Made by a program: the position numbers and the translations under genes. From contig JBBIVV010000001.1 in the NCBI GenBank assembly GCA_037439545.1, positions 35,469-99,468 of the forward strand: a stretch of 64,000 nt of DNA. Reading direction: 5' to 3'. This document shows, piece after piece, positions 2,860-27,576 of the stretch; positions within the stretch are counted from its first letter, which is position 1; each line of letters begins with the position of its first letter. Below the pieces are notes generated by a model. That model made no database searches and was not told where the DNA came from. It was given only the letters and a program-made list of their open reading frames with translations. This DNA is from a bacterium (lineage in GTDB: Bacteria > JAMCPX01).

Positions 2860-2910
2860 TCTATTCAGTCCCGAACAATCCTGAGATTGTTATGACCGGT
2901 CTATGCCCGT

Positions 2911-3732
2911 TTATATCTTCGCAAGGATCTTGTAATAGAATAACCCTACGTATTCGTGCATTCCCCTATAGGTGTTGGATAATGCCTCCAAGTCCGGCAT
3001 ATAGTCCATAAAATCATAGTGTCTTCTGTTAATTTTATAATCAGCAGGTGCAGGTATTATGTTGGTCAGACCAGCATTCCTGAATGCATAGACAGCTCTT
3101 CTTAAGTGATATGCAGACGTAATAAGGATGATCCTCTTACACATGAGCTTTTCGCACAAGCTTTTGACTTCTATGGCGTTTTCATAGGTATTCCTGCTCG
3201 TTGAATCCATAAAGATATCCTTTTCCGGCACACCCATCTGGACAAGATATCGCCGCATGACAGGTGCTTCAGGCTTCTGGTATTTAAACCCCTTGCCGCT
3301 GCTTACGATTAAAGGTAAGGGTTGGATCCTGTACAGCCGGAAAGCATATACAAGTCTTTCCAGAGAGTCACCCGTCGGTGTTCCATTGCCTTCAAGATCC
3401 GGTGAATTATCGTGTATACCGCCGCCGAGTACGACATAAACATCGTGTGCAGATATGTCCTTGACATTCAATTGAGAATAAGTGTTTTCAAGAGGCAGCA
3501 TGAGTTTATCTGCCAGCGGCCCCAGACATGCCGTGTAGATGGAAACTGAGAATATCAACATCATGATACCTATGCCCGTTTTCTTTTGTTTTATGAGCAT
3601 TATTGCCCATAAGAAAGACATGGTGATGGCCAGCCCTGGTGGTAGAATCCACGCAGTGAAAAGTTTTGATATTATATACATGTATCCTCCATTGAGATCC
3701 GTTATAAAGCTCCCGTGCAGCTCTCCCTGCAT
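2911..3732 (-). CDS. DUF218 (YdcF/SanA/ElyC-like) membrane-anchored protein
   Basis: N-terminal TM segments, then VVLGGGIHDNSPDLEGNGTPTGDSLERLVYAFRLYRIQPLPLIVSSGKG, typical of the DUF218 fold. Confidence 0.55.
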   Translation of the reverse strand: MQGELHGSFITDLNGGYMYIISKLFTAWILPPGLAITMSFLWAIMLIKQKKTGIGIMMLIFSVSIYTACLGPLADKLMLPLENTYSQLNVKDISAHDVYVVLGGGIHDNSPDLEGNGTPTGDSLERLVYAFRLYRIQPLPLIVSSGKGFKYQKPEAPVMRRYLVQMGVPEKDIFMDSTSRNTYENAIEVKSLCEKLMCKRIILITSAYHLRRAVYAFRNAGLTNIIPAPADYKINRRHYDFMDYMPDLEALSNTYRGMHEYVGLFYYKILAKI

Positions 3733-8327: not shown

Positions 8328-9746
8328 CTAAATGCCCTCATGCATGGCTATGGCCGATGCAATAGCAATAACCATATCGCTGGGGTCGACTGTATTTGCA
8401 TAATCCAGAAGGTCCGGATGCTCATTTATAAATTCGGTATCAAAATAGCCCCTTTTAAAATCCTCGCTGTTTACGATCGCCTGCAGATAGAAAATATTTG
8501 TTTTGATACCTCTTATAACGAATTCATCGAGCGCTCTTCTCATCCTGTTGACTGCTTCTTCCCATGTCCCGCCGGTGACAGTTAATTTTGCTATCATCGG
8601 ATCGTAGTAGTCAGGCACGACATAATCCTTGTAAACAGCTCCGTCTATTCTTACACCGATGCCGCCTGGAGAATAATAAGCCGTAATCCTGCCTCCGTTC
8701 GGCAGAAACGCGTTTTGCGGGTCCTCGGCTATAAGCCTGCATTCGATTGCATTGCCGCGTATTTTTACGTCCTTTTGTTTTATACCCAGCTCCAACCCTG
8801 CAGCGACCTCTATCTGTTTCTTAACTATGTCGATGCCCGTTATCGACTCTGTAACGGGATGCTCGACCTGCAGTCTCGTATTCATCTCCATGAAGTGGTA
8901 CCGCATGCTGCTGTCGACAATAAATTCAATGGTGCCTGCATTCGTATAATTGACGAGTTTCGCAATTTTTACCGCAAGGTTTCCCAATTCCTTCCTTTTT
9001 TTATCACCGAGGAGCAATGAAGGAGCAATCTCTATCACCTTCTGGTGCCTCCTCTGTATGGAGCAATCCCTTTCACCGAGATGGATCACATTGCCGTGAT
9101 GATCCGCGAGTATCTGCACCTCAATGTGATGAGGTTTTGTAATATATTTTTCGATAAAGATCTCAGGATTATTAAAGAATTTCTCAGCCTCTGACCTTGC
9201 AAGGCTATAGTACCGGATCAGTTCGTTTTCTGTTTTTGCAATCCGCAGACCTCTTCCACCGCCGCCTCCGGATGCTTTTATAATCACGGGGTAGCCTATT
9301 TTTTTGCCCCATTTTATTGCATCATCCTCGCTTTCTACCGGTCCATCGCTGCCGTCTACAACAGGGATGTTATGCTCTTTCATAAACTCTCTTGCCTTGA
9401 GTTTGTTCCCCATGAGTTCAATCACAGGGGAGGAGGGACCAATGAAAACAACGCCCCGCTTTTCGCACAACTCTGCCATCTTCGGGTTTTCCGATACAAA
9501 GCCATACCCCGGGTGTATGGCATCGGCCCCGATCTTTTTTGCAATATCCACGATCCTATGGATATTGAGATAGGCTTCAATAGGCCCCGGTGTAACGAGA
9601 TAAGCTTCGTCCGCTTTCTTTATATAAAGGGCTGTCGAGTCTTCTTCCGTATAAATGACAGCACTCCTTACATTCATCTCCTTGCATGCCCTTATTATTC
9701 TTGTCGCAATCTCGCCTCTGTTTGCTATGAGAATTTTATTAAACAT
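8328..9746 (-). CDS. pycA: Biotin carboxylase (pyruvate carboxylase subunit A / AccC-like)
   Basis: MFNKILIANRGEIATRIIRACKEM... ATP-grasp biotin carboxylase N-terminus; 472 aa; directly upstream of the biotinyl/carboxyltransferase subunit. Confidence 0.85.
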   Translation of the reverse strand: MFNKILIANRGEIATRIIRACKEMNVRSAVIYTEEDSTALYIKKADEAYLVTPGPIEAYLNIHRIVDIAKKIGADAIHPGYGFVSENPKMAELCEKRGVVFIGPSSPVIELMGNKLKAREFMKEHNIPVVDGSDGPVESEDDAIKWGKKIGYPVIIKASGGGGGRGLRIAKTENELIRYYSLARSEAEKFFNNPEIFIEKYITKPHHIEVQILADHHGNVIHLGERDCSIQRRHQKVIEIAPSLLLGDKKRKELGNLAVKIAKLVNYTNAGTIEFIVDSSMRYHFMEMNTRLQVEHPVTESITGIDIVKKQIEVAAGLELGIKQKDVKIRGNAIECRLIAEDPQNAFLPNGGRITAYYSPGGIGVRIDGAVYKDYVVPDYYDPMIAKLTVTGGTWEEAVNRMRRALDEFVIRGIKTNIFYLQAIVNSEDFKRGYFDTEFINEHPDLLDYANTVDPSDMVIAIASAIAMHEGI

Positions 9747-9781
9747 TCCTTTTGCTCCAATTTATATATAATGCATGTATA

Positions 9782-10297
9782 TTAAATAAGTCCAAACATC
9801 AATTGAATGATAATCAGAGCAGTCTTGATAATCTTATCGGGCAGTGAGCTTAAATCATTATTGCCCGGTGATTGATTTAAGACATCGATAAACCCGGGGT
9901 TATTGTACATTGACATTATTTTTTGTTTTGTTCCGTCCTGTGCAAAATGGCTGCGGAATTCGGCGTAATCCATAACCTCCTTGCTGTTCATCCATACGCC
10001 TTCACAGTTTCTGCACAGCATAAACACCACCATATTTTTGAACAGGGGATCGTTATACTCTATGAGTTCCGTGCCGCATACGGGACAATGAAGTTCTTTC
10101 TTCGTAAGTACTGGCTTCCCCAGCAGCTCGCGGTCCACCTCAAGAAGGGTATCGGGTATTGTGGTGAACTGATAAAGCTCGTGGTGATCAAACCATACGC
10201 CGCCGCAGCCCGGACACTGGTCAACGGTAACATAGTTGTTTTCATCCGTCTTAAGAGAACTGGATTTCATGTCTCCCTGGCAATTCGGACATTTCAT
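9782..10297 (-). CDS. Double zinc-ribbon domain protein (two CxxC...CxxC units)
   Basis: MKCPNCQGDM...CPGCGGVWFDHHELYQ and CPVCGTEL...CRNCEGVWMNSKEV: two tandem zinc-ribbon modules. Confidence 0.5.
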   Translation of the reverse strand: MKCPNCQGDMKSSSLKTDENNYVTVDQCPGCGGVWFDHHELYQFTTIPDTLLEVDRELLGKPVLTKKELHCPVCGTELIEYNDPLFKNMVVFMLCRNCEGVWMNSKEVMDYAEFRSHFAQDGTKQKIMSMYNNPGFIDVLNQSPGNNDLSSLPDKIIKTALIIIQLMFGLI

Positions 10298-10911
10298 TTC
10301 TTTTTGAATGCCTTTTCCTCGCCCCTGGAGAGCCGTTTTATGTTTTCACGGTGTGTGAATAAGATGAATGCCGTCATAAATACTGCAAACCCTGTCATAA
10401 TGCCCCGCACGGATGTACCATGAAATAAAATCAATGAGATGAACGGAAGGCTTATTGCTACCGTCAATGCACCGACAGACGAGACCCGTGTGATTAAAAA
10501 TGCGGCCAGCCATACGACTATCAAGAGTAAGGCAAATAAGGGACTTAGTGCCAGAAACATTCCAAGACTCGTTGCAATGCCTTTGCCGCCTTTGAATTTA
10601 AGGAATGGAGTGAATACATGTCCTGCTACGGCAAGTACACCGGTAACAGCCATAAATAAATAAAGCTGTATCTGAGGCAACTCCTTGAAATAAAGCTTTA
10701 TCAGGAGCACGGGTAAAAAGCCTTTCAGTGCATCTATGACAAGTACAAACGCGCCCCAGCCTTTTCCCATGGCACGTGTGACATTCGTTGCGCCAATATT
10801 ACCGCTTCCGACAGTTTTTATGTCTATACCCTTGGCTTTCGCAACAAGATAACCTGTCGGAAGTGAACCCATGAAAAACGCACCGATTAAAATAAGGATA
10901 TAAAGGATCAT
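10294..10911 (-). CDS. plsY: Glycerol-3-phosphate acyltransferase PlsY
   Basis: GSLPTGYLVAKAKGIDIKTVGSGNIGATNVTRAMGKGWGAFVLVIDALKG: canonical PlsY motifs; 205 aa polytopic. Confidence 0.85.
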   Translation of the reverse strand: MILYILILIGAFFMGSLPTGYLVAKAKGIDIKTVGSGNIGATNVTRAMGKGWGAFVLVIDALKGFLPVLLIKLYFKELPQIQLYLFMAVTGVLAVAGHVFTPFLKFKGGKGIATSLGMFLALSPLFALLLIVVWLAAFLITRVSSVGALTVAISLPFISLILFHGTSVRGIMTGFAVFMTAFILFTHRENIKRLSRGEEKAFKKK

Positions 10912-15066: not shown

Positions 15067-15124
15067 CATTACAGAAAGAATTCGCACTGCAAACAGCCGT
15101 GTTACTTTTAAAATGGAGGTTTGT

Positions 15125-16204
15125 ATGAGGCATGTAAAATTGTTCATGTCGTTTATATTTTTGTTTATTCAGTCAGTTCTCATGATCAATGCGAATGCAG
15201 ATGGATTATCAGGTTCAGCTTTCACAACTATCAATATTCATTCCCTTGGCCCGCAAAGAATCGGTGATTTACGGTCTGTGCCGGTTCCTGTCGGCAATCC
15301 GCAATCGCCGATGAAGATTGTGCTTGGGAAACAGCTTTATTTTGATACGCGTCTGTCAAAGAACGACACGATAAGCTGTGCAACGTGTCATAGTCCGTTT
15401 ATGGGCTGGTCTGATGCAGGACCGACAAGTACAGGTATTCATGGTCAAAAAGGTCCTCGCAGGGCTCCACCTGTTTCAGATGCGGCTTACAGCTCTTTAC
15501 AGTTCTGGGACGGCAGGGCAGCAAGCCTTGAAGAGCAGGCAGAAGGTCCTATGCAGAACCCTGTGGAGATGGGCAATACGCTCGATAATGTAGTTAAGAC
15601 GCTGAACGGTATCCCCGGTTATGTAGAAGAATTCAAACAGGTGTTTGGAGAAACTCCTATCACTATAGAGCAGGTCGTTAAAGCCATAGCAGCATTCGAA
15701 CGTACTGTGGTGACAAGCGATTCCCCCTTTGACAGGTATGTCAAGGGTGATGATAACGCCCTTACGGATGACGAGAAAGAGGGTCTTGAGATCTTCAACG
15801 GTAAGGCGCATTGCACGGCATGCCATTGGGGCGGTTATTTCAGCGACGGAAGGTTCCATAACCTCGGTACTGCACAGACCGGCCCGTTAAAAGTGGATGA
15901 TGGAAGATATGCAATAACGCAAGATCAGGAAGATAGGGGCGCATTTAAGACGCCCACTATACGGGATGCTGTCAGACGCCCGCCTTATATGCACGATGGG
16001 TCCGAGAAGACGCTTGAAGAGGTAGTGGAGTTCTACAACAAGGGCGGTGGAGACGATCCGAATCTTGACCCATTGATTGTACCGCTTGGACTCTCAAATG
16101 AAGAGAAAAAAGATCTTGTCTTGTTTATGGAAGCGGCACTCATAAGCCTTAACCCCGGGGTTGCCGGAGTAACGCCTATTCCGCCGTCCGTATTGCCTAA
16201 ATAG
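15125..16204 (+). CDS. Di-haem cytochrome c peroxidase (CCP/MauG family)
   Basis: Two CxxCH motifs (CATCHSP and CTACHWGGYFSDGRFHN), signal peptide, about 360 aa; start moved to the second ATG (15125), preceded by GGAGG. Confidence 0.8.
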   Translation: MRHVKLFMSFIFLFIQSVLMINANADGLSGSAFTTINIHSLGPQRIGDLRSVPVPVGNPQSPMKIVLGKQLYFDTRLSKNDTISCATCHSPFMGWSDAGPTSTGIHGQKGPRRAPPVSDAAYSSLQFWDGRAASLEEQAEGPMQNPVEMGNTLDNVVKTLNGIPGYVEEFKQVFGETPITIEQVVKAIAAFERTVVTSDSPFDRYVKGDDNALTDDEKEGLEIFNGKAHCTACHWGGYFSDGRFHNLGTAQTGPLKVDDGRYAITQDQEDRGAFKTPTIRDAVRRPPYMHDGSEKTLEEVVEFYNKGGGDDPNLDPLIVPLGLSNEEKKDLVLFMEAALISLNPGVAGVTPIPPSVLPK

Positions 16205-16215
16205 AGGAGAACTCA

Positions 16216-17472
16216 ATGAAAAGAATTTATATTTTTATATTGATAATCTCTGCCATAACATTTTTTATGCCCGATAGAGCACACGCTATACCTGCTTTTG
16301 CAAGGAAATATGGATTTACCTGCACCATGTGTCATACTGCGTACCCGAAGCTCAATGACTTTGGACAGAGGTTCAGGGACAATGGCTATCAGATACCCGG
16401 GCAGGAGGGTTATGAAAAGAATGTTTTTGAAATAGCACCGCCAATATCTTTAAGAACCACGACAGGGTTGACCATCTATGATTCAAAGCAGGGAACAACG
16501 TCAGGTTTCAATATTTATGGTCTTGATCTGCTCGCCGCAGGAGTATTGCATAAAAACATATCGTTTTTACTCATCTATACTCCGAGGATTGACGAACCCG
16601 CGGCAGATTACACGGGTCCCCAGGGAACCAACCCATCACAGCTCGGTTCAATGGAATCGGCAAACATTGTGTTCAGCAATATCATCCATGACGCACTCAA
16701 TCTGAGGATAGGGAGATTTGAACCGGCTTATCAGGCAATCAGTTCGCACCGATCGTTCTATATTATGGAACCTTATGAGGTGTATACATTTACCACGCCT
16801 TCAAACAGCTTTGTATTTGCAGACAATCAAATGGGTGCCGAGGCTACGGGACATTTCAGGAGCGGATTTAAATACGCACTCGGTGTTGTTAATGGTAATG
16901 GCGGTAATCCTGATAACAACACCTATAAAGATGTTTATGCGAATCTGTTTCAGGTAATAGGAAAAGGCGATGGACAGAGTGCGGGTCAGAGAATAGGCGT
17001 GTTCGGTTATTACGGCTGGCAGCCTGCTGTTCTGCCGGGGCCTGCAGCTGCACCGACAGGTGAGACGAATGGCGGCGGCAACAAGCCTTTCTACAGGCTC
17101 GGTGCAGATTTAAGCTTTAATTGGTCTACATTAAATTTTGAGGTGTTATATATGGCAGGCGTTGATGATAAGGCGCTTAACACATTGGATCCTACGAAAG
17201 GCTATGTTTATTCAGGAGGGTTTGCAGAGCTTGATTGGGCATTGCTTACCAATAACGGTCTTATAGCCTCTATAATTTACAATTGGGTCATACCTCCGGA
17301 TTATGATAATGCCAGAACAGTCAACGCGTACTCGGTTCTTATGAGGTATTATCTTGGAGATTGGACAGCATACAACATCGCTTTACACGGCGAATATACC
17401 TACAGAGAAACGGGAAAGAACAGCCCACGAAGGGAAAATCTATTCACCGCATTAGTGGATTTTGCTTTCTGA
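16216..17472 (+). CDS. Putative Cyc2-like fused monohaem cytochrome-porin (outer-membrane beta-barrel with N-terminal CxxCH)
   Basis: Signal peptide, then a single CTMCH motif within about 15 residues of the predicted cleavage site (AIPAFARKYGFTCTMCHTAYPKLNDFGQRF); the remaining 370 aa are beta-rich, Gly/aromatic-rich and end in ...ALVDFAF (OMP C-terminal Phe). Confidence 0.45.
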   Translation: MKRIYIFILIISAITFFMPDRAHAIPAFARKYGFTCTMCHTAYPKLNDFGQRFRDNGYQIPGQEGYEKNVFEIAPPISLRTTTGLTIYDSKQGTTSGFNIYGLDLLAAGVLHKNISFLLIYTPRIDEPAADYTGPQGTNPSQLGSMESANIVFSNIIHDALNLRIGRFEPAYQAISSHRSFYIMEPYEVYTFTTPSNSFVFADNQMGAEATGHFRSGFKYALGVVNGNGGNPDNNTYKDVYANLFQVIGKGDGQSAGQRIGVFGYYGWQPAVLPGPAAAPTGETNGGGNKPFYRLGADLSFNWSTLNFEVLYMAGVDDKALNTLDPTKGYVYSGGFAELDWALLTNNGLIASIIYNWVIPPDYDNARTVNAYSVLMRYYLGDWTAYNIALHGEYTYRETGKNSPRRENLFTALVDFAF

Positions 17473-17474
17473 TG

Positions 17475-18497
17475 TTACTCGCTGAAGCTGTAACTTAATC
17501 CTCCAATCCAGATAACCTGCGGTGCGGTAGAGAAAGAGCCTGTTGTTACCCTGTCAGACACTTTCTTTGAAACGGACAATTCTGCAGCTATAGCAATCCG
17601 CAATCCCCTGACCGGCGTGTAGAATAGTATGCCCGGTGTAATGTATAAAGGATTTTGATTCCATGATACACTCGAAAATGATGGATCGGTCAATGAATAA
17701 GAGCTGTAGCTGTCTGTAAATTGCGATGTAAATTCGAGCATGGGTTCTATGTAATATTCCGGCAATGGGAATAAAAGCGAAATTCCCAGCAAGGTAAGTC
17801 CGTCTCCCCGTATACCCATAGCATATTTTCCAAGAGGAGGAATGAGATTGTTATCAGTCGAAGATAAGAGATTTTGTGTGTTATCCCACAGATAACCTAT
17901 ACGCAAGGTTGCAATAAGCGGGAATGACAGCTTCGATTTACTCATATCATAAGATGCAAGCAGACTCAGGGTATAGCTTGCTGCATTGCCATTGTATCCA
18001 ATGGCTCCAACCTTGCTGTAAAGCAGGGCTTCCGTCAGGATACCGATACTCAGGTCCGGTATTACTTCATAGCTTCCCTTTATACCTATCTTTAAGTCGC
18101 CGGAATAATGTAAGGATTGTGATGAAGTAACAATACTTGAAGAATCGAGAGAACCGAGAGATATTTCAAGATACTGAAGCGGTGCATACGATAGTGCTCC
18201 ATACACGGTATTGTTCTCGAGTTTATTGCCTTGTCCTAAAAAATTATTCTGCGATGCATACGCATCATATACGGCAATATTGGCCCTTCCTTTCGTTATA
18301 AACGCCGACGGGACATTGATAGAACCGCTCTGACCTGTGACAGAAACCTCTGTTCCCCTTGAAAGAGCGTTATGGCTCTCTATGGTATCAAAAGATGGGA
18401 CAGTGATTGAATTGTTTTGACCTGTTGCAGGAGACTCTGCGCCTGCAACCCCGGTAAATAGTATAAGACATAAAAGAGTAATGACATAGGTTTTCAT
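17475..18497 (-). CDS. Hypothetical secreted / outer-membrane beta-barrel-like protein
   Basis: Signal peptide MKTYVITLLCLILFTGVAGA; alternating hydrophobic pattern, Ser/Gly/Tyr-rich. Confidence 0.4.
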   Translation of the reverse strand: MKTYVITLLCLILFTGVAGAESPATGQNNSITVPSFDTIESHNALSRGTEVSVTGQSGSINVPSAFITKGRANIAVYDAYASQNNFLGQGNKLENNTVYGALSYAPLQYLEISLGSLDSSSIVTSSQSLHYSGDLKIGIKGSYEVIPDLSIGILTEALLYSKVGAIGYNGNAASYTLSLLASYDMSKSKLSFPLIATLRIGYLWDNTQNLLSSTDNNLIPPLGKYAMGIRGDGLTLLGISLLFPLPEYYIEPMLEFTSQFTDSYSSYSLTDPSFSSVSWNQNPLYITPGILFYTPVRGLRIAIAAELSVSKKVSDRVTTGSFSTAPQVIWIGGLSYSFSE

Positions 18498-18544: not shown

Positions 18545-19630
18545 TCAATGTTTGCTTTTATGTTTGTACCGGTGTTTGATTTGCGCAGGACTTTTCAAGG
18601 TATGACTATGTTTTGTGTTTATGTAATCCTTGGCCCACGGATCATCTTTGTAAGATTCTATCCAGTCAATCTTCTTGAAGTATTTGGAACAGTAAAAGCA
18701 GGAGAAGTAATCAAGTTCCGTAATACCGCCGTTCTTTATCAGGTCTATCTTATCTTTGTTGAATTTGTTAATCGCGTCTGCCCACATTTTATGCGCATCA
18801 AACAGGCTGACCGTGTTAAGGTCTGCTATTATATCGAGTTCGTCCGGCGACCCCGTGTAGCCGGATATCTGGCAGCAGAAGGTAAGCCTGCCTTTGTAAT
18901 CAATATTCGGCGAGTACATGGTGAGCGCCCTGCACTGGTAGAACAGGACGGGCTCATGATGTCCGAGAGAAAAGTTTATATCGATCTTCATTATGCTCTT
19001 TAACTTCTCGACCCTCTGTTCCGCTTCCCTGTATTGTTCGGGAGATAGTACGAGGTCCTGTTCGAATGCGAGGGGGGTCGGCTCAAGGTGCGCATAGAAA
19101 AGCCTTTTCAGACCGAGTTCAGATGCAAGGACCGCCATTTTTTCTATGTCATCGAAGTTTTTTTTATTTACCGTGATCTGAACGCTTATGTCGATGCCTT
19201 TTACCTTCAGTATGCTTATTGCCTGCATTATCTTTCTGAACGAGCCTTTTCCTCTGATATAATCATGGGTCTCGTCCGTTGCACCGTCTAAAGAAATAGA
19301 AATGCCGGATAGTTTACCGAGCCTGCCCGGTGATTCCGGGTCATTCAGCGTTTTCCATACAGAGGGAAAGTTCCATGCATTTGTGACAAAATGGTATGTA
19401 TATCCATACCGGACAACTGTATCTATGATCTTATCGAACTGGGGATGCAGCGTCGGCTCACCTCCGGTAAAGGCAATGTGCTTAAGGTTGTATGACTTTG
19501 CCTGCTTCAGGATCTTATCGAAAAGTTCGAGTGATATATAACTCTTCATATCGACCTTATCCCTTAAACAGTGCCTGCAGGATAGATTGCATTTATTGGT
19601 AAGCTCAAAGCTCATTTCATAAAATGACAT
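18545..19630 (-). CDS. Radical SAM / SPASM-domain protein (peptide- or protein-modifying maturase type)
   Basis: CNLSCRHC (CxxxCxxC) at residues 14-21; C-terminal Cys-rich region (FCCQISGY...CFYCSKYF) consistent with a SPASM/twitch auxiliary cluster domain; 361 aa. Confidence 0.7.
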   Translation of the reverse strand: MSFYEMSFELTNKCNLSCRHCLRDKVDMKSYISLELFDKILKQAKSYNLKHIAFTGGEPTLHPQFDKIIDTVVRYGYTYHFVTNAWNFPSVWKTLNDPESPGRLGKLSGISISLDGATDETHDYIRGKGSFRKIMQAISILKVKGIDISVQITVNKKNFDDIEKMAVLASELGLKRLFYAHLEPTPLAFEQDLVLSPEQYREAEQRVEKLKSIMKIDINFSLGHHEPVLFYQCRALTMYSPNIDYKGRLTFCCQISGYTGSPDELDIIADLNTVSLFDAHKMWADAINKFNKDKIDLIKNGGITELDYFSCFYCSKYFKKIDWIESYKDDPWAKDYINTKHSHTLKSPAQIKHRYKHKSKH

Positions 19631-19639
19631 GTTTTCTCC

Positions 19640-20599
19640 TTATTCCTTTATACCGTCTAACACGATCAAAGGATTTTTCAAAAGATCCCTGCCGCAGAAA
19701 CACCGGTAGGCTTTCGTCTGATGCAAGAGTATCTTTAATGCATGCATATGGCGGTCTGCATGTATCTTATTGAAAAATACCATAAGTGATTGAGGCAGAA
19801 GCATTGACATTGCCTGTGTTTCGCCGATGGGTTCCGTTATCGTTTTTTTGGTGCCTGTACGCTCAACGAAAAGTATAATATCAGGTGTGATACTATCAAT
19901 CGTTTTGAAATTTCCGTAGGGTATGGATGATTTTTTAAAAGGTGGTCTTGGCAGGCGCACATCTTTTAAGAGATGACTGAAATGCCGGATCGTATTTCCG
20001 GTTACATGGATATCTTTTTTAAAACCGATTGCTGATATTCTGTTCTTGCCCTGCTTCATGAGTACGGCATCATCGGCACACATCTTCCAGCCGTTGAAAG
20101 CAAGTCCGAGGGTAAGCGTCGTTTTTCCCGACATGCCCATTCCGCACACGAGGATAGAATGCCTGCCGTCGGTAACAGCTCCGGCATGCAGGTAATAGAG
20201 TTTATGATGCCTGAGGAGCTCTATGAGAGCTATTGTCAGAAAAATCGACACGAATTCAGTACCCCTTTTCAGGGTTGCAGAATCGACAAAAGCAATTGAT
20301 TTTCCTTCTTTTGCATGAACGATCATAAAAGTATTATCGTCCGATAATAACAGGGTATCATCATCAAGAATATATCCTTTTATTCTGCCGTAGGTAAATA
20401 ATAACGTAGTGCTCGCATCGGGTTTCAACGGTATCTTATGTGAAGTATAAAGTTTTATGTTTATATCATGAGGCTCGTTGCCGGATTGTGATGCGTTATA
20501 TCCCGCAAAGAATGCCTTTACAGTGCCGAGCAATACCTGTTCATCCGCTTCGATCAATATTCTTATTCCGGATATTTGAAATGAGAATCTTAAGTCCAT
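19640..20599 (-). CDS. HPr kinase/phosphorylase C-terminal-domain-like putative Ser/Thr kinase (HprK-related)
   Basis: LHAGAVTDGRHSILVCGMGMSGKTTLTLGLAFNGWKMCADDAVLM: P-loop (GxxxxGKT) in the HprK-like context (HAxAV...G.SG.GKSTLA...DD); 319 aa. Start overlaps the stop of the upstream nucleotidyltransferase. Confidence 0.55.
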   Translation of the reverse strand: MDLRFSFQISGIRILIEADEQVLLGTVKAFFAGYNASQSGNEPHDINIKLYTSHKIPLKPDASTTLLFTYGRIKGYILDDDTLLLSDDNTFMIVHAKEGKSIAFVDSATLKRGTEFVSIFLTIALIELLRHHKLYYLHAGAVTDGRHSILVCGMGMSGKTTLTLGLAFNGWKMCADDAVLMKQGKNRISAIGFKKDIHVTGNTIRHFSHLLKDVRLPRPPFKKSSIPYGNFKTIDSITPDIILFVERTGTKKTITEPIGETQAMSMLLPQSLMVFFNKIHADRHMHALKILLHQTKAYRCFCGRDLLKNPLIVLDGIKE

Positions 20600-21294
20600 T
20601 ATGAAAAAAGCCTTCTCGCAAGTTCTAATCTATCAATTTTGCCGATATCGATCCATAAGCCATTATGCACATATCCGGCAATAAGCCCGTTATTTTTAAG
20701 CAGCCCGGGATACATATGCACGGTTGTGGAAGGCTGTTTAATATTTACCGGTATATAATCCATTACGGATGGTTTTACGAATTGAATCCCGGTAAATATA
20801 TAGGGGGAAGTATCGGGGGAGGGGGTAAAAAGGCTTTTAATATATCCCTTACGGTCGAGATAGATGTTTGCGATATTAACCTCATTCTGTTTTGCTTTAT
20901 AGAGCACCATGACGGCATCGGCACCTCTGTCGTTCAACAGTGGAGGCAGGAGAGAAAGGTCGATGTCGAATAAAATATCGCTGTTTATGAGATAAAATGG
21001 CTCATCAAGGAATTTTTTTGCCCACAACAGTGCACCTGCAGTCCCCTGAATCTCAGGCTCATAGGAATAATGCAGATCTATTCCCTGTATTGAGCTGTTA
21101 CCGAGTTTCTCCCGGATCATTTCTCCAAGATGATGAAGGTTTATGATTACACTTTTCACGCCCGCCTTTTTTAGGGCGGCAAGCGTATGTTCGATGACCG
21201 GTTTGCCGTTTATATCGACAAGAGGCTTTGGAATGCTTTCAGTGATGGGCTTAAGCCTCGTTCCAAAGCCGGCTGCAAGTATCATTGCTTTCAT
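20599..21294 (-). CDS. Sugar-phosphate nucleotidyltransferase family protein
   Basis: MKAMILAAGFGTRLKPITESIPKPLVDINGKPVIEHTL: canonical NTP_transferase N-terminus (GxGTRL). Track ORF uses an upstream TTG (21318); the ATG at 21294 fits the family N-terminus. Confidence 0.75.
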   Translation of the reverse strand: MKAMILAAGFGTRLKPITESIPKPLVDINGKPVIEHTLAALKKAGVKSVIINLHHLGEMIREKLGNSSIQGIDLHYSYEPEIQGTAGALLWAKKFLDEPFYLINSDILFDIDLSLLPPLLNDRGADAVMVLYKAKQNEVNIANIYLDRKGYIKSLFTPSPDTSPYIFTGIQFVKPSVMDYIPVNIKQPSTTVHMYPGLLKNNGLIAGYVHNGLWIDIGKIDRLELARRLFS

Positions 21295-21516
21295 GATTAT
21301 CCTATTAACATAAAACAATTAAAACAAAATAACAACAGAGAGCCTATGCCAGGGTGCGCATGGAATGCGGTTGCATGTTTGTGAGCTGTGGCTCGATCGG
21401 TTTCTTGCAAAAAAATATATATTATGATATAAGTTAAAAACTTCTTTGTTGAAGCATTATCATTAAAAATACATGCCATGGTGCATGAAAGTATAACACT
21501 ATACGGAGGTGTCGGT

Positions 21517-22521: not shown

Positions 22522-23886
22522 CTATTTTATCGTTGCGATAACACTCTGTGTTGCCGGAGAGATTACATAAATGGAATTGGTGAGTATGTCCGTGATGTAA
22601 GCCTGGTTCGTTATTTGATCCATAATGACATTTTCCGGAAACCCGATTCCCGTCAGTATCTTGATATTCTGAGCCGCTATCGTATTGAACGTGAACATAT
22701 CATTGTTGTTCAGCGCTGTTGTGCCCGGGTTTATATAAAATGATACCCCATCGTTTATACTGTCAAAAAATGTCCCGTTACGTGCAGGGTTTGCCTGCAG
22801 TCCTGAAACAGTCCCCGCGACAGTATAATTTTTTGCACCTGAATTATAAACGACTGTCCATATCTCGGATTGTGTCGTGCAATCATTGGTAATAATGGAT
22901 TGTATTGAGGATGCCAAGGAAGCAGGAATGGAGCTTGTGAGCCTAAGTCCCGTGAATGAGCTTGGTGTCAAAGGTATATTGCACCCGTGGTCGATATTCA
23001 AGAAATGTATGTATCCATTCGCATTGGCAACAATCCCGAGATATGAAAAATGATCGTCATCGAGCGCTACTCTCTGCGGTGTGATGGTGAAATCATAAGG
23101 TATGCCCGGCACAGTGAATTCATAACCCGTAATGCCGTTTTCTGTGTTTATAGATTCGAAGTTGTAGCCTGTAGAAGTATATACCATCGCATAAAGCATG
23201 GTATTCGCATACTGATTGACAATGCCGCCGATAACGGAAACGGGATAATCCGTAACAATCCTCTTAATCTCTATAAGGGTGTACGGATCCAACACGGATA
23301 TGAACGGCTGATCATTAGATGAAACAAACAGTTCACGGTTGTCAGGCCCTGTTATCATCGATGACGGAGTAAACGTTAAACTGGTGAATGTCGACGGCGT
23401 TATGACATTGCTGACGGTAAATGATTCGAGATAAAAATTGTCATTCTGTGCATCAAGGACGAATAGCGTCGAAGTCTGGGGAATGAGCAGTGTTTTCAGC
23501 GGATAGCCTCTCAGATATATGGTGCTCGTCGTCTGGTTTGTCAGAAGGTTCAATGATTCAAGCAAACCCGCAGCTTGCGTGAATCCCGCAACATAGAGAT
23601 AACTGTCGTTATATGCGAGTGATTTTGGATACATATTCATCTGCAGCGCATGGGTTCCTGCCGGGGTCGTAATCGGCATGACGCTGTTTGTCGCTGTGTT
23701 TATTTCCGATATGGTACCGGTAAATGTGTTTGCGACAAAGAGTGTTCTTGTATTCGATAAAGGCAGATAACCGAGGGTCATTGCAGACGGATAGGTAAAG
23801 TTGGTTTGGGTCGATGATGTCGAACTGCATGCAGAAACCATGAGCAGGAGAATAAAAGACAGGGATGCCTGAATAATCTTTTTCAT
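22522..23886 (-). CDS. YVTN-family beta-propeller repeat lipoprotein
   Basis: Lipobox LLLMVSAC; repeated YVTN/NHL-like units (QAYITDILTNSIYVISPAT...); C-terminus similar to its upstream paralogue; start overlaps the upstream stop (ATGA). Confidence 0.5.
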   Translation of the reverse strand: MKKIIQASLSFILLLMVSACSSTSSTQTNFTYPSAMTLGYLPLSNTRTLFVANTFTGTISEINTATNSVMPITTPAGTHALQMNMYPKSLAYNDSYLYVAGFTQAAGLLESLNLLTNQTTSTIYLRGYPLKTLLIPQTSTLFVLDAQNDNFYLESFTVSNVITPSTFTSLTFTPSSMITGPDNRELFVSSNDQPFISVLDPYTLIEIKRIVTDYPVSVIGGIVNQYANTMLYAMVYTSTGYNFESINTENGITGYEFTVPGIPYDFTITPQRVALDDDHFSYLGIVANANGYIHFLNIDHGCNIPLTPSSFTGLRLTSSIPASLASSIQSIITNDCTTQSEIWTVVYNSGAKNYTVAGTVSGLQANPARNGTFFDSINDGVSFYINPGTTALNNNDMFTFNTIAAQNIKILTGIGFPENVIMDQITNQAYITDILTNSIYVISPATQSVIATIK

Positions 23887-25283
23887 TTTAATGTGCCCAC
23901 AATAGTAAAATTGGTCAGATCTATAACGTCAAGATTGTTGTCCCCATAATTCAACTCGTAAAGATAGTGCTGATCCGGAGATAGAACCATTGAAAATGGA
24001 CCTTGCCCGACACTGATTCTTCCTATCACTGATTCCGTATTGGTATCGATGACGTAGATTGTATTGGAGTTATAGCATGCTACATAAAGCGTAGAGCCGT
24101 CAGCGCTGAGCGCCATGGCCTCTGGAGATTTGCCGACTTTAATGTAGTTTTCAACCGTATTGCTGCCGGTAGCGATGACAACGACGCTGTCCAGCCCCTT
24201 ATAACTGACGAAAACTTTTCTCATGTCCGGCGTCATGACGATGCCTTTCGTCACAGGAGTAGCAGTGCCTATACCTGCACCGGGAAGGTTCGGTATGTTT
24301 ATCAAACCGCTCGATGCGGTCGTATAAAAAGTAAAGCTTTCTCCGGATACGAACGGATAAACCGGATCGTAGATCGTGAAGCCGGCATCACCGTTATCCG
24401 ATGTATAAGGTATGCCTGCACGCGCATGTGCTTTCATAGGTCCTGAAACAGAACCGTTTACTAAAAAATCGGATGTTGCCGGTGTAAAACTTAATGTCCA
24501 TTCCTCTGATTTGGTCTGACAATTTTGTGTTTGCACGGACGACATAGTCTCAGTCCTGCCATAGGTATTTGTGTTGAATACGGGCAGGGTAGCAGAGCTT
24601 GGAAACATCGGATTGAACTCGCAATGATTATTTATCGAAACAACGGATATGTTGTTGTCAGCGCCTCTTGCTATATATGCATACATGTCCGGAGGTTGAT
24701 TATTAATAACAACCGGTGACGGTGTAACGACAGCATTTAAAGGGGATGCCCCCAAACCATTATTTGTCAATTGGATTCTGTAGAGCTCCTTCTGCTGTAT
24801 CGAAGAAATTATGGATACGTCATTTCCCGAGAGATTACATGAAAGCATCAACTGATCCCCGTCTACGCTGCCTATCGGTACCACTGCCGTGGGGTTTTGA
24901 TCGACCTGTATACCCGATGTTATCGTATTTATTGCAGTATCAAAAATTAAAATTCTGCTGTTTGATCTGTCTGTAAGCCAGAGGAGTCCTGTCGATGAAA
25001 GGTATGCACCGGCAATGTACGATATGTCCGATCCTTTATAGCGCATCGGTGCAACATTGGAATAAGAAGGTTGAGTGGGCGATGACAGCGAAATCATGGA
25101 TATATAGCTTGAACAATATCTCGCATCAGCATTGCTGTTTAGAACATAAAGAAAGTTGTCCTGCTTCATAATCATAGACACAGGTCCATCCATGGAATTT
25201 AAAGGCGGAGGTGTGCATTTTGGCGTATAGACACAGCCCCCGGAAAACACCGCTAAAAATGTCATTATAATTACATTTTTCAT
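23883..25283 (-). CDS. YVTN-family beta-propeller repeat lipoprotein (paralogue of 22522-23886)
   Basis: MKNVIIMTFLAVFSGGC lipobox start at 25283, overlapping the yidC stop (TGATG); repeats such as TLYVACYNSNTIYVIDTNTESVIGRISVG match the 40-residue YVTN beta-propeller repeat. Confidence 0.55.
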   Translation of the reverse strand: MKNVIIMTFLAVFSGGCVYTPKCTPPPLNSMDGPVSMIMKQDNFLYVLNSNADARYCSSYISMISLSSPTQPSYSNVAPMRYKGSDISYIAGAYLSSTGLLWLTDRSNSRILIFDTAINTITSGIQVDQNPTAVVPIGSVDGDQLMLSCNLSGNDVSIISSIQQKELYRIQLTNNGLGASPLNAVVTPSPVVINNQPPDMYAYIARGADNNISVVSINNHCEFNPMFPSSATLPVFNTNTYGRTETMSSVQTQNCQTKSEEWTLSFTPATSDFLVNGSVSGPMKAHARAGIPYTSDNGDAGFTIYDPVYPFVSGESFTFYTTASSGLINIPNLPGAGIGTATPVTKGIVMTPDMRKVFVSYKGLDSVVVIATGSNTVENYIKVGKSPEAMALSADGSTLYVACYNSNTIYVIDTNTESVIGRISVGQGPFSMVLSPDQHYLYELNYGDNNLDVIDLTNFTIVGTLK

Positions 25284-26986
25284 CAATATTTTTTTAAAAT
25301 GTAATACTGCTGTCCTATGCTGAATAAATTGTTTACAGTCCAGTAGAGGGCAAGCCCTGATGGGAATGACCATAGGATTACGGTCAGGAATATAGGCATG
25401 AACCACAGCATGAGCTTTGTTTGTGTAGGGTCAGCCGTAGTTGGGGTAAGCAATTGCTGCGCAAACATGGTTATGCCCATAATCAGCGGTAATACATGTA
25501 TACCCACTGCAAAGTTCATAAGATGTATCGTTCCAATAGTGTCGGGAGAAGCCAGATCCTTTATCCACCACATAAAAGGCGCATGCCTTAACTCTATCGC
25601 CGCTAATAAGACCTCGTAGAGCGCTATAAAAACAGGTATTTGAAGGAGCATGGGCAGGCAGCCGCCTAAAGGGTTGACCTTGTAGCTTCTATACAGGTTT
25701 GTCGTCTCCCTGTACAACCGTTCTTTGTCATCCTTGTATTTCTCTTTGATCTCATTGATCTTCGGTGCCAGCTTCTGCATCTGACGCATTGATTTGTAAC
25801 TAATCTGACCGAGGGGAAATAGCAGGATCTTTATGAGGAGTGTCATAAGAACTATTGCCCAGCCGTAATTGCCGGTAAATCTATTGGTGAATCTGAGAAC
25901 AAAGAAGAGCGGTTTTGCAATTATATTTGCCCACCCGAAATAAAGCGCTCTATTTAAATCAGAGCCGGCGCTGTTCAGCACATCTATTGCCTTTGGACCC
26001 AGGAATACGGTATAAACCTTTTTTTCTGTCGTACGGGGCCCGATGGTTACAGGGTTATAAATATAGGTCAACAGCATGGGAGTTAAATTGTTATCGGTGG
26101 TATTTGTTTTTGTGGCATAAAGATGGGCGGCAGTGGACTCACCGGGCAGCACTGTCTGGATAAAATATCTATTTTCAAGCCCGAACCATTGAATGAATCC
26201 GTCGTACGATTTTGACAGGTTGAGGGATTTTGTCTCTATGGTTTCTCTGCTATCGTTTATCAATACAATCCCGTCTGCAATGTCATATTTTGAGCCGAGT
26301 TCCCCGGACAATCCACTCCAATTTACCCCGAGCCTTTCGGTCACGGATTTATTTGAACGGTTATCGAGTGAAATCTCGACTGTAGCGGTGTAAGAATTGC
26401 CGTAGAATGTTACGGTCTTCTTTATTCCAACAAGCGAATCATTGTACGCACAGATTATCCGGGCATCGTCTTCCTTATTTTTGATTGTAACGGTAAACCC
26501 TGTTACACGTTCATTTTTTCCCGAGGTCTTTTCTCTTGCTGAAGAATCTTTTAACGGGGTAAGGTCTGAGCACGTGTAGATTATGTTTGCCGGTACTGAA
26601 AAACTTGAACCATCAAAGCTCTCCCACATGGGGTAAGAGATATCGGGCGCATTACGGATAATATCGACAGAGGGACTATCTTTCTCAAGTTCTGTCTTAT
26701 AATTTTTTAGATACCAATGCATTATCGTAAGATTGTTTGTCGACAGCTCTGCGTCATAGAAGGGGGTGTTTATATGTATGGTTTTTGCATTGGCAGATTG
26801 TTTTTCTTTGTAGGACGGGCTAAAGTTCAGCTCCCCGGCCATTTTTTGCTGAGACATTTGTTGCCCGGATGTTTGCTGCCCCGCAGGCTGGACATTTGGT
26901 TTCTTCTGTACAGGTACGACGAACCATTGATATAATACCAATACAAGAAAAGACAGGACTATTGCTATGAGTGTTCTGTTTTCCAT
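25283..26986 (-). CDS. yidC: Membrane protein insertase YidC
   Basis: 567 aa; N-terminal TM, large periplasmic domain, C-terminal five-TM core (GCLPMLLQIPVFIALY...); sits in the rpmH-rnpA-yidD-yidC cluster. Confidence 0.85.
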   Translation of the reverse strand: MENRTLIAIVLSFLVLVLYQWFVVPVQKKPNVQPAGQQTSGQQMSQQKMAGELNFSPSYKEKQSANAKTIHINTPFYDAELSTNNLTIMHWYLKNYKTELEKDSPSVDIIRNAPDISYPMWESFDGSSFSVPANIIYTCSDLTPLKDSSAREKTSGKNERVTGFTVTIKNKEDDARIICAYNDSLVGIKKTVTFYGNSYTATVEISLDNRSNKSVTERLGVNWSGLSGELGSKYDIADGIVLINDSRETIETKSLNLSKSYDGFIQWFGLENRYFIQTVLPGESTAAHLYATKTNTTDNNLTPMLLTYIYNPVTIGPRTTEKKVYTVFLGPKAIDVLNSAGSDLNRALYFGWANIIAKPLFFVLRFTNRFTGNYGWAIVLMTLLIKILLFPLGQISYKSMRQMQKLAPKINEIKEKYKDDKERLYRETTNLYRSYKVNPLGGCLPMLLQIPVFIALYEVLLAAIELRHAPFMWWIKDLASPDTIGTIHLMNFAVGIHVLPLIMGITMFAQQLLTPTTADPTQTKLMLWFMPIFLTVILWSFPSGLALYWTVNNLFSIGQQYYILKKY

Positions 26987-26988
26987 GA

Positions 26989-27243
26989 TTATGGTACCTG
27001 GTCATCCCCGCCGGCGTGGAATGGATGACATTTCAGTATCCTTTTTGCCGACAGGAATCCGCCTTTAAAGATCCCATACCTGTTTATCGCAATAATTGAG
27101 TACTCAGAACATGTCGGATTGAATCTGCATGTCGCACCGAGCAGCGGTGAAATGAAGATCCTGTAAAGCTTAATGATATTGATTGCAAATATATCTGCAG
27201 CAGTCATGGTTTTTTGTTTTATAGTATATATTATTTTGATCAT
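26989..27243 (-). CDS. yidD: Membrane protein insertion efficiency factor YidD
   Basis: [58 protein letters not shown]: canonical YidD. Confidence 0.8.
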
Positions 27244-27258
27244 GTCACGGATCTTTTA

Positions 27259-27576
27259 TTAAATCTTCGTCACGTTTAACAACTCGTCTCTTACCTGTTC
27301 GTAGGAGATAGTGCCGATATTGTTCTTGGCTATAAAGATAAAATCAACTTTCTGCATCATAGTTTTATTTAACCTAAAGAATGCCCTGAGTAATCTTTTA
27401 ATCCTGTTCCGTTTTACAGCATTTCCGGCTTTTTTGCTCACTATAATCCCGAACCTTAGAATATTCAACGTGTTTGCATGTACCAATATTATAAAATGAC
27501 GGGATTCTCTTTTATAGCTGCTGCGTTTTAGTGTCTGATAATCCCTGGATGAAACAATCTTTTCCTGCCGGGACAG
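27259..27576 (-). CDS. rnpA: Ribonuclease P protein component RnpA (non-AUG start inferred)
   Basis: Frame translates LSRQEKIVSSRDYQTLKRSSYKRESRHFIILVHANTLNILRFGIIVSKKAGNAVKRNRIKRLLRAFFRL...; the RnpA N-terminal region lies upstream of the 75-aa GTG-initiated track ORF with no in-frame ATG. AGGAG sits 7 nt before a CTG at 27576, which I take as the start; the exact start is uncertain. Confidence 0.65.
   Translation of the reverse strand: MSRQEKIVSSRDYQTLKRSSYKRESRHFIILVHANTLNILRFGIIVSKKAGNAVKRNRIKRLLRAFFRLNKTMMQKVDFIFIAKNNIGTISYEQVRDELLNVTKI

Follow-up and report, generated by a model that had tools for sequence, protein, structure and literature searches.

A tightly packed four-gene operon encodes, in this order, a nucleotidyltransferase (NTase), an HprK-like P-loop kinase, a radical SAM enzyme and a fourth protein, P4 (Table 1). 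It seems to be a leaderless branch of a large, uncharacterised family of cassettes, whose core is the pair of kinase and radical SAM enzyme. Descent of this pair from RiPP-type machinery is supported by its relatives, which occur together with PqqD, the lasso-B2 protease, sulfotransferases, an NTase of the PsmN type and, in seven loci, a precursor-like peptide; a RiPP function of the operon itself is a candidate. Positions refer to the window, that is, the whole 64-kb stretch of DNA that was analysed.

Table 1. Genes of the operon and its upstream region (positions in the window)
Feature	Position	Strand	Remarks
NTase, sugar-1-phosphate nucleotidylyltransferase (predicted)	20599..21294	minus	231 aa, operon gene 1, PF00483
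HprK-like / PEPCK-fold P-loop kinase	19640..20599	minus	319 aa, two domains
Radical SAM enzyme, predicted Twitch-like C-terminal auxiliary-cluster domain	18545..19630	minus	361 aa, PF04055
P4, predicted secreted 12-stranded outer-membrane beta-barrel	17475..18497	minus	340 aa, conserved fourth gene
Divergent intergenic region upstream of NTase	21295..21477	.	short box before ATG

A preliminary description of this DNA had listed the first three genes as translationally coupled on the minus strand. Their open reading frames were confirmed, and so was the overlap of the kinase start with the NTase stop, where TAA and ATG share one base (TAATG). The remaining junctions, also read directly, have gaps of 9 nt between the kinase stop and the radical SAM ATG and 47 nt between the radical SAM stop and P4. 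The NTase starts at the ATG at 21294 (MKAMILAAGFGTRL) and not at the TTG at 21318, since all homologues begin there.

The four-gene order was found again in 10 further distinct metagenome-assembled loci with differing flanks (L002, L004, L006, L007, L009-L013 and L105; L003 and L008, re-samplings of the L002 genome, were not counted as distinct), and is therefore more than chance. The three genes thus form a conserved neighbourhood, in support of the preliminary reading, and P4 belongs to it. Gaps within the unit do not exceed about 135 nt across the related loci, and, as here, the end of the NTase gene overlaps the kinase start in all five relatives with gene calls read, by 1 or 4 nt. The unit is lineage-restricted, being known from a few uncultured bacteria only, and the kinase and P4 families number about 17 clusters each among 5.8 billion proteins. 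Loci of the window's clade (clade A) lie in conserved core-genome synteny (LptE, holA, rpsT). In one locus, L104, P4 adjoins the NTase, and the 19-kb stretch read contains no kinase or radical SAM gene. Several loci encode a basic protein of 138-162 aa (C26) downstream of P4; it is missing from the window and was rejected as a cassette member, representing flank synteny.

Assignment of the four proteins

The NTase matches PF00483 with 98.9 bits (cut-off 21.2) and contains the motifs GxGTRLxPxTxxxPKPL and WIDIG (WxDxG-like). Its top NCBIfam match, aligned over the full length, is MurU (145 bits, below the equivalog cut-off of 250), and among its PDB relatives, UGPase, GDP-Man pyrophosphorylase (GMPP) and MurU lie at much the same distance (~1e-26). 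It is 63-72% identical to the NTases of the 10 cassette loci and L104. By these motifs and matches it is a predicted sugar-1-phosphate NTase of the GlmU/RmlA/MurU type, not of the PsmN type of lasso clusters. In PMC6993621, PsmN appears as an uncharacterised NTase whose structural homology is aminoglycoside-NTase-like; the two proteins belong to different superfamilies. The identification of a sugar-nucleotidyltransferase with a GxGTRL N-terminus in the preliminary description thus stands, while its analogy to the NTases of lasso peptide clusters is one of name only.

The kinase has the catalytic His, the P-loop GxxGxGK[ST], the DD and the C-domain fold of HPr kinase/phosphorylase. In particular, 17 homologues all share H138, the P-loop G153-T161 (GMGMSGKTT) and D176-D177, and an alignment of 40 sequences with 22-29% identity still shows no variation at H138, G158, K159 and D176-D177. 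K159 and D176 are 17 residues apart, and we take the spacing of His, P-loop and DD to fit HprK rather than PEPCK; the whole-length fold is PEPCK-like. The protein scores 13.7 bits against PF07475 (HPr kinase/phosphorylase, a family also modelled as TIGR00679; cut-off 33.3), a model to which a distant relative in L016 scores 33.6 bits, and 33.8 and 31.3 bits against HprK_rel_A and HprK_rel_B (TIGR04352 and TIGR04355, cut-off 200). On the basis of the motifs, a profile match to Coxiella HprK (E 2.6e-4) and the fold, the assignment as HprK-like holds, although the protein falls below every curated cut-off. The DD>AA mutant of PsmK, equivalent to the DD of the kinase, is inactive (PMC6993621), and the characterised HprK-family enzymes in the papers cited have Ser residues of proteins or peptides as their targets (PMC6993621, PMC9266682).

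The radical SAM enzyme matches PF04055 with 87.3 bits (gathering cut-off 29.5), and its CX3CX2C motif consists of C14, C18 and C21, as first described. It has exactly eight cysteines, the other five being C-terminal (233, 252, 253, 311 and 314), each of them being invariant or conserved to at least 90% in sequences with as little as 33% identity. To the same depth the pattern C233-x18-C252/C253 ... C311-x2-C314 is kept together with a G247-x4-C252 hairpin. The C-terminus had been called SPASM-like, but no match to a SPASM domain was found in Pfam (E<=0.01) or NCBIfam. Since there are only five C-terminal cysteines, as opposed to the 7-Cys motif of SPASM for two clusters, the domain is predicted to be Twitch-like with one auxiliary cluster. 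The N_Twi_rSAM model gives 56 bits, below its cut-off of 170, and aligns only with residues 7-209; an N-terminal RRE is lacking. At 78-82% identity, no other gene of the cassette is as conserved. Its closest solved relatives are SkfB, BlsE (the second-best PDB match) and PqqE, the alignments with SkfB and BlsE covering only the radical SAM core (residues about 7-180). None of the known-family models reaches its cut-off, the SynChlorMet and GeoRSP equivalogs (cut-off 400) giving 92.8 (ScmF), 81.5 (ScmE) and 69.0 bits (GeoRSP). Peptide maturases (SkfB, PqqE, ScmE/F, WgkB, MftC) make up most of the nearest characterised relatives, and there is likeness to the small-molecule enzymes BlsE, MoaA and NirJ/AhbD as well.

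P4 combines a signal peptide with an even number of antiparallel strands modelled as a barrel, and structurally resembles the COG4313 channel 4rl8, KdgM/NanC and FapF. From these 12-stranded channels it differs in having invariant long loops, in forming an orphan family and in its sequence (7-14% identity, no homology); the confidence of the predicted model is moderate. FapF and autotransporter barrels are matched equally well. Directly after the signal peptide there is a conserved motif, VSxTGQNGSIxVPSAF, that contains Ser/Thr. The flanking beta-rich protein had been suggested to be either a substrate or an exporter-associated component. It is the fourth gene of the conserved unit, and the modelled barrel makes a channel more likely than a substrate.

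Peptide-handling genes and relatives of the kinase and radical SAM pair

No precursor or PqqD-like RRE gene had been seen in the flanks, and this holds for the whole 64 kb and for the related clade-A loci, in which no precursor, RRE or protease was found. HMMs of PqqD and B2 from the relatives, an HMM of the type-C precursor and phmmer with a 55-aa ORF of L101 gave no match in either. A search for small ORFs, as had been recommended, compared nine intergenic ORFs of 15-90 aa at 11.5-27.6 kb with 11 related loci; none is conserved, in line with the absence of a visible precursor. A cyclase-like gene is lacking among the ORFs at 15.1-25.4 kb of the window and in the gene calls of the related loci. 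The locus thus does not contain the lasso cluster set (precursor, B1, B2 and C cyclase), nor the generic mark of RiPP clusters, an adjacent precursor gene conserved across loci, which concerns linked precursors only. The four-gene unit itself includes no glycosyltransferase and no inner-membrane transporter or exporter.

A different picture emerged elsewhere, where the search included a metagenome scan with the radical SAM alignment as query. The genes of the HprK-like kinase and of this radical SAM subfamily are adjacent in most loci sampled, and relatives of the pair (24-35% identity for the kinase, 28-49% for the radical SAM enzyme) adjoin several peptide-handling genes, namely PqqD (L018 and L100) and the lasso-B2 protease (46.6 bits, above the cut-off of 33). 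Further neighbours are an NTP_transf_5 (PF14907) NTase, sulfotransferases and GalK; the NTase is of an uncharacterised kind, as PsmN is described (PMC6993621). Seven loci have a conserved precursor-like ORF, ...KKAFVEPxISxPVDVLEATTFFQxxSSGxTN*, which ends shortly upstream of the kinase gene. The association of HprK-like proteins with radical SAM/PqqD cassettes, mentioned in the preliminary description, is therefore real. Sugar-handling genes are present in each architecture (GalK, PF00483 NTase, PMT_2/GT2 or NTP_transf_5), and in other architectures, too, the gene immediately 3' of the radical SAM gene encodes a secreted protein or lipoprotein, for example the PD40 propellers of types B and D. 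In all architectures other than that of the window the pair occurs without an NTase or P4 of the window's kind. HMM searches found neither PqqD nor B2 in the sister clade (L101 and L103, the gap after the radical SAM gene of L103 being masked with N), which adjoins PMT_2 and GT2 glycosyltransferases.

That the gene trio is not a described system is consistent with the curated models, none of which reaches its cut-off, and no paper joining HPr kinase or HprK with radical SAM was found in the literature searched; the TIGRFAMs paper has nothing specific. The lasso kinases PadeK, ThcoK and PsmK together with PsmN resemble the window in the HprK-family P-loop kinase with its catalytic DD and in the kinase and NTase genes lying side by side, and relatives of the pair adjoin PqqD (B1), lasso-B2 and the PF14907 NTase. 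The window differs in lacking a lasso cyclase, B1, B2 and a precursor, in its PF00483 NTase and in its radical SAM enzyme, a kind of gene that is not listed in the psm cluster. The best model matches of the radical SAM enzyme and the kinase are the SynChlorMet (ScmC/D/E/F), GeoRSP and HprK-related kinase A/B families, which NCBIfam lists but which are uncharacterised, and whose cassettes combine radical SAM with PqqD; ScmC weakly matches HprK-like relatives. However, the window scores far below their cut-offs (92.8/400, 69/400 and about 32/200), lacks PqqD, and has one Twitch radical SAM enzyme instead of SPASM proteins, plus the NTase and the barrel. Similarly, the AmgK-MurU and HddA-HddC pairs have a kinase gene coupled to an NTase gene, and MurU is the best equivalog match of the NTase, but at 145 bits against 250, and the window adds a radical SAM enzyme and an outer-membrane barrel. 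Its kinase has the HprK/PEPCK P-loop fold, whereas those of the two pairs are APH-like or GHMP. Finally, SkfB, BtrN and BlsE, the first and last being the top PDB sequence matches, resemble the radical SAM enzyme in the C-x18-C(C)...C-x2-C pattern, the G-x4-C hairpin and its predicted single auxiliary cluster; alignment is confined to the radical SAM core, and their family models are not matched.

Possible functions

Our tentative preference is for an unlinked peptide or protein that is phosphorylated, capped with a sugar and modified by radical chemistry, and that would reach the surface by way of P4. The kinase would use ATP to phosphorylate a hydroxyl, most likely of Ser or Thr. The coupled NTase would supply an NDP-sugar or directly nucleotidylate the new phosphate monoester, and the phosphate could then be sugar-capped, as on the phospho-Ser of pseudomycoidin. 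The radical SAM enzyme, with its RS cluster and one auxiliary cluster, would take a hydrogen atom from the same substrate, resulting in a cross-link, epimerisation or oxidation, and the product may get to the cell surface via P4.

The peptide substrate that we infer for the window's clade is favoured by the conservation of the unit amid variable flanks, by the NTase/kinase overlap, by the invariant His, P-loop and DD of a kinase whose cited family members act on Ser, and by the peptide-handling neighbours of the relatives, including the seven loci with a precursor-like ORF. The sugar-handling genes in each architecture, the prevalence of peptide maturases among the radical SAM relatives and the channel- or secretion-type barrel of P4 point the same way. 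It is weakened by the lack of a precursor, RRE and protease over 11 distinct loci, which is unusual for a RiPP, by the affiliation of the NTase outside the PsmN superfamily, by the missing glycosyltransferase and inner-membrane exporter, by the coupling of the kinase to a sugar-1-phosphate NTase and its PEPCK-like whole-length fold, by L104 and the sister clade without PqqD and B2, and by the likeness of the radical SAM enzyme to BlsE, MoaA and NirJ/AhbD. Should the pair have peptide substrates, its wider family may represent a new class of RiPPs, for which the seven loci combining kinase and radical SAM enzyme with PqqD and a conserved precursor offer a test case. In the window's clade, RiPP machinery would then have been taken over for a leaderless role, perhaps at the cell envelope.

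An extended form of the peptide reading is rather doubtful. The pair would constitute an undescribed RiPP class in which a radical SAM enzyme replaced the lasso cyclase, lasso-type leader recognition was kept (FxxPx[ILV] leader, B1 and B2), and tailoring with phosphate, sugar or sulfate was added. The window's clade would be its leader-free offshoot, in which the pair became connected to an enzyme forming NDP-sugars and to a barrel of its own, and it may build or export a phospho-glycosylated component of the envelope, or a protein that is modified prior to export.

A sugar-nucleotide pathway is possible and nearly as likely as the peptide or protein reading. Here the kinase would phosphorylate a sugar, a sugar acid or a similar compound, the NTase would make the NDP-activated form, and the Twitch radical SAM enzyme would modify the nucleotide-linked molecule, as BtrN or BlsE do, while P4 would import the starting compound or export or anchor a glycoconjugate. 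Translational coupling between a kinase and a sugar-1-phosphate NTase follows the usual logic of small-molecule activation, and the two genes overlap wherever gene calls were read; the NTase is a standard enzyme of this type with intact motifs, and L104 retains only it and P4. Carbohydrate and nucleoside enzymes occur among Twitch-type radical SAM proteins, BlsE ranks second among the PDB matches, and the radical SAM enzyme (~80% identity) is as conserved as housekeeping neighbours. The lack of any peptide-handling gene found in clade A and the glycosyltransferases beside the sister clade also agree with a glycan product. Nevertheless, we know of no HprK-family enzyme that phosphorylates a small molecule, the His/P-loop/DD spacing appears to fit HprK rather than PEPCK, and the wider relatives of the pair sit in peptide-handling contexts. 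The unit moreover has no inner-membrane transporter or glycosyltransferase, and the barrel fits FapF and autotransporters equally well. A small-molecule kinase would be, to our knowledge, the first case of sugar-type activation in the HprK family, feeding a radical SAM enzyme that acts on a nucleotide-linked substrate. Either outcome would provide a function for the HprK-related superfamily (>5,700 representatives at 50% identity) and an account of the orphan P4 family.

It is unlikely that the operon joins two unrelated modules, NTase with P4 and kinase with radical SAM enzyme, that have no common pathway. Such a division would explain L104 and the occurrence of the pair without NTase or P4 in all other architectures, but 11 distinct loci have the pair between NTase and P4, always in the same order. 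The overlap of the NTase and kinase codons and the absence of an evident internal terminator argue for co-expression and selection on the unit.

Slightly less probable still is that P4, or another secreted envelope protein, is the substrate, modified in the cytoplasm before Sec export in the way that anaerobic sulfatase-maturing radical SAM enzymes treat exported sulfatases; kinase and radical SAM enzyme might then target the N-terminal VSxTGQNGSIxVPSAF motif. P4 is strictly dedicated to the cassette, its conserved Ser/Thr-containing motif directly follows the signal peptide, genes for secreted proteins or lipoproteins follow the radical SAM gene in other architectures (for example PD40 in types B and D), and no separate substrate gene is visible. 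However, L104 has P4 with no kinase or radical SAM gene nearby, the model is poor across the motif (pLDDT of 41 for residues 51-60 and 76 for 61-70), outer-membrane barrels are not known to need such modification, and the reading is a purely contextual one.

A viperin-like antiviral system, in which the radical SAM enzyme, kinase and NTase make chain-terminating nucleotides, is very improbable, and a defence role was rejected. The PADLOC pVip model 'associated with kinases' gives 80.5 bits (no curated cut-off) and viperins occur among the PDB profile matches (53 bits), but the pVip score is no better than those of a dozen unrelated radical SAM families, the NCBIfam model of prokaryotic viperin (cut-off 180) reaches only 60.3 bits, PADLOC finds no match for the kinase, NTase or P4, the loci lie in core-genome synteny and not in defence islands, and we know of no auxiliary-cluster Cys motif in viperins.

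Region upstream of the operon

Two small ORFs upstream of the NTase, 21354-21437 and 21365-21427 (both plus strand), are not conserved, and the antisense ORF clusters C7 and C12 over the NTase 5' end were dismissed as shadows of the conserved coding region. A scan for consensus promoters and terminators was at chance level, and Rfam gave no matches in the 64 kb. Over the 300 nt upstream in nine loci, similarity is confined to roughly the last 25 nt, where the relatives have a short box just 5' of the NTase start codon, TGTGATAAT-GGATAATC-ATG, the window version of which is TATGTTAATAGGATAATCATG.

A conserved and co-translated four-gene unit

The preliminary description recognized three genes here, encoding a nucleotidyltransferase (NTase), an HprK-like kinase and a radical SAM protein. 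Their presence and order are confirmed, but the co-directional minus-strand genes number four, and the flanking beta-rich protein, earlier viewed as a possible substrate or exporter-associated component, is indeed secreted and associated with the unit, as its conserved fourth member, the outer-membrane barrel P4. In the window the NTase and kinase genes overlap by one base (TAATG), an overlap also occurs in each of five relatives with gene calls that were read, and the window's other two junctions are gaps of 9 and 47 nt; the gaps are too short to hold a gene. The TTG at 21318, the ORF finder's choice of NTase start, is used by no homologue. A consensus scan of the region for promoters and terminators gave a count not above chance. 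A short conserved box only some 12 nt ahead of the start codon of the NTase, in the same position in L002, L006, L007 and L011, reads TGTGATAAT-GGATAATC-ATG in the relatives; it is similar to an extended -10 element, in which case the 5' leader may be very short.

Coordinates of the unit, its neighbours and features of related loci
Sequence	Feature	Position	Strand	Remark
Window	NTase	20599-21294	-	start ATG 21294, preceded by AGGA
Window	HprK-like kinase	19640-20599	-	
Window	Radical SAM	18545-19630	-	
Window	P4	17475-18497	-	340 aa, secreted
Window	Conserved box	21295-21320		
Window	Di-haem peroxidase, then secreted protein	15113-17472	+	
Window	Two tandem secreted proteins	22522-25406	-	
Window	rnpA-yidD-yidC	25283-27486	-	
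L104	P4 and NTase orthologues	9001-10724		GCA_023382265.1
L029	Precursor-like ORF	1442-1633	+	
L031	Precursor-like ORF	2635-2814	+	
L032	Precursor-like ORF	1358-1537	+	
L034	Precursor-like ORF	2-157	+	
L046	Precursor-like ORF	2770-3264	+	
L048	Precursor-like ORF	421-678	+	
L049	Precursor-like ORF	306-539	+	
L101	55-aa ORF	10659-10826	+	MKERKMAKPAKDQKKNGVKKTFIKPEVVEERDF...

The order NTase-kinase-radical SAM-P4, which defines the window's own group (clade A), was found again in 10 further distinct loci (L002, L004, L006, L007, L009-L013 and L105; L003 and L008 re-sample the genome of L002), so that the trio is conserved in related genomes. All are from uncultured MAGs of diderm bacteria. The radical SAM protein is the most conserved across these loci (78-82% identity), followed by the NTase (63-72%), P4 (53-64%) and the kinase (50-61%). 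The upstream neighbours vary (M48 peptidase, FGGY kinase, methyltransferase, AF_1499, epimerase), as do the downstream ones, and the regions upstream of the NTase resemble each other only over some 25 nt leading up to the ATG. Among 5.8 billion proteins there are 17 close clusters of the kinase and 17-18 of P4, and no distant relatives of P4 were found. In an exhaustive HMM search the kinase clade comprises two 50%-identity representatives; below them the score steps down, 372 bits to 178, to where a superfamily with 5,707 representatives begins.

Enzymes of the unit

The NTase matches PF00483 (98.9 bits). Its best NCBIfam match is MurU (145 bits, under the cut-off of 250), and it lies about equally far from the solved structures of UGPase, GDP-mannose pyrophosphorylase and MurU; as such it is an ordinary sugar-1-phosphate nucleotidylyltransferase. 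The lasso peptide precedent proposed earlier for both enzymes holds for the window's kinase and fails for the NTase. In the pseudomycoidin system, the DD-to-AA mutant of the kinase PsmK is inactive (PMC6993621) and the NTase PsmN is required for placing hexose on phospho-Ser (PMC6993621; PMC9266682). The description given of PsmN is that of an uncharacterised NTase, its homology being aminoglycoside-NTase-like (PMC6993621); this matches the PF14907 genes of the type C relatives, a different class from the window's enzyme.

The kinase reaches none of the curated cut-offs (PF07475, 13.7 bits versus 33.3; HprK_rel_A/B, 33.8/31.3 bits versus 200). Nevertheless, the residues needed for catalysis and the fold are preserved. 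No member of the clade departs from H138, the P-loop GMGMSGKTT or D176-D177; H138, G158, K159, D176 and D177 are unchanged even when 40 sequences at 22-29% identity are aligned; and the family profile matches Coxiella HprK (E 2.6e-4). The most fitting description is that of a two-domain "mini-PEPCK/HprK" P-loop kinase.

Besides the CX3CX2C motif (residues 14-21), the radical SAM protein contains five cysteines and no more (233, 252, 253, 311 and 314), kept down to 33% identity. These five account for the C-terminus formerly called SPASM-like; neither a SPASM model match nor an N-terminal RRE was found in this protein. The pattern C-x18-C...C-x2-C with G-x4-C is, judged from sequence, Twitch-like, which would point to a single auxiliary cluster. 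Among solved structures, those of SkfB, BlsE and PqqE are closest. In the literature available for searching, no paper connects HPr-type kinases with radical SAM proteins.

Relatives of the kinase-radical SAM pair

The wider family was surveyed by genome and metagenome scans and look-ups, followed by ORF clustering and domain scans. The two genes are adjacent in most relatives, in several architectures. L100 and L018 have the order PqqD-kinase-radical SAM-lasso B2 protease (NF033537, 46.6 bits, over the cut-off of 33). Type B loci (L014-L017, L021, L022) have kinase-radical SAM-PD40 lipoprotein-Transglut_core3-sulfotransferase-GalK, and type C loci (L028, L029, L031, L032, L038, L042, L046) NTP_transf_5 (PF14907)-secreted protein-small ORF-kinase-radical SAM-sulfotransferase-like-PqqD-membrane protein-HTTM-LTD. 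Type D is radical SAM-PD40-PqqD-B2-kinase, and in L101-L103 a PMT_2 glycosyltransferase adjoins kinase-radical SAM. An approximate NJ tree built from the radical SAM proteins puts the window clade beside the PMT type, then beside L100 and L018. The core of the unit is homologous to cassettes with clear peptide-handling parts.

In seven metagenome loci (see table) a conserved, precursor-like small ORF (...KKAFVEPxISxPVDVLEATTFFQ-xxSSGxTN, then stop) has its 3' end a short distance ahead of the kinase gene. Where contigs are long enough, these loci also carry PqqD, radical SAM, sulfotransferase-like, NTP_transf_5 and HTTM genes, and no lasso cyclase was seen. The FVEPxI element is similar to the YxxPxL leader motif bound by lasso B1 (PqqD-like) proteins. 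The ORF and its cassette may constitute an undescribed RiPP family. In the sister clade, a 55-aa ORF of L101, identical in L102, lies two genes downstream of the kinase-radical SAM pair and has a KKTFIKPEV element akin to the type C leader motif. Homologues of this ORF were not found in other loci.

Possible roles and neighbouring genes

HMMs for PqqD, B2 and the precursor, built from the relatives, had no match across the 64 kb of the window or in the clade A loci. Between 11.5 and 27.6 kb the window has nine small ORFs in intergenic DNA, not one of them conserved, which bears out the earlier remark that no PqqD or precursor is visible nearby. The sister PMT type likewise lacks PqqD and B2. 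The RiPP-like reading has partial support: it comes from ancestry, through the peptide-handling cassettes of the relatives, and not from content.

The cassette is a new combination of known kinds of parts. Its intact catalytic motifs and its folds are shown; its chemistry and substrate we infer. Tentatively, we favour retention of the ancestral job, in which the kinase and radical SAM protein would phosphorylate and radically modify a polypeptide, in clade A a leaderless one encoded elsewhere. The phosphate would receive its sugar cap through the NTase, and the surface would be reached by way of P4. A role in a sugar-nucleotide or glycan pathway is possible too, and nearly as likely as modification of a polypeptide: it is favoured by the kinase-NTase coupling, the PEPCK-like kinase fold, the sugar-porin-like P4 barrel and the complete absence of peptide parts, as well as by L104. 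In this locus an NTase orthologue (63% identity) comes immediately after an orthologue of P4 (57%), and the 19-kb stretch read contains neither kinase nor radical SAM gene; NTase and P4 may thus be a module in their own right. That the unit consists of two independent modules is improbable, and that P4 itself is the substrate slightly more so. A viperin-like defence system can hardly be entertained. The unit's proteins reach the threshold of none of the curated families viperin, Scm, GeoRSP, HprK_rel_A/B and MurU.

Beyond P4 lie a MauG/MbnH-like di-haem peroxidase (TIGR03791, 256.9 bits; TIGR04039, 220.4 bits; both under the cut-offs) and a 418-aa secreted protein that matches no family but has a haem-like motif, CTMCH; both also lie next to the cassette in L011, and in L002 only the peroxidase does. 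On the other side, two large secreted proteins, with YVTN/lactonase-type beta-propeller repeats at their C-termini only, are encoded just downstream of yidC. The latter belongs to an rnpA-yidD-yidC string, with RnpA and YidD motifs read from the translations, an arrangement often located near the replication origin.
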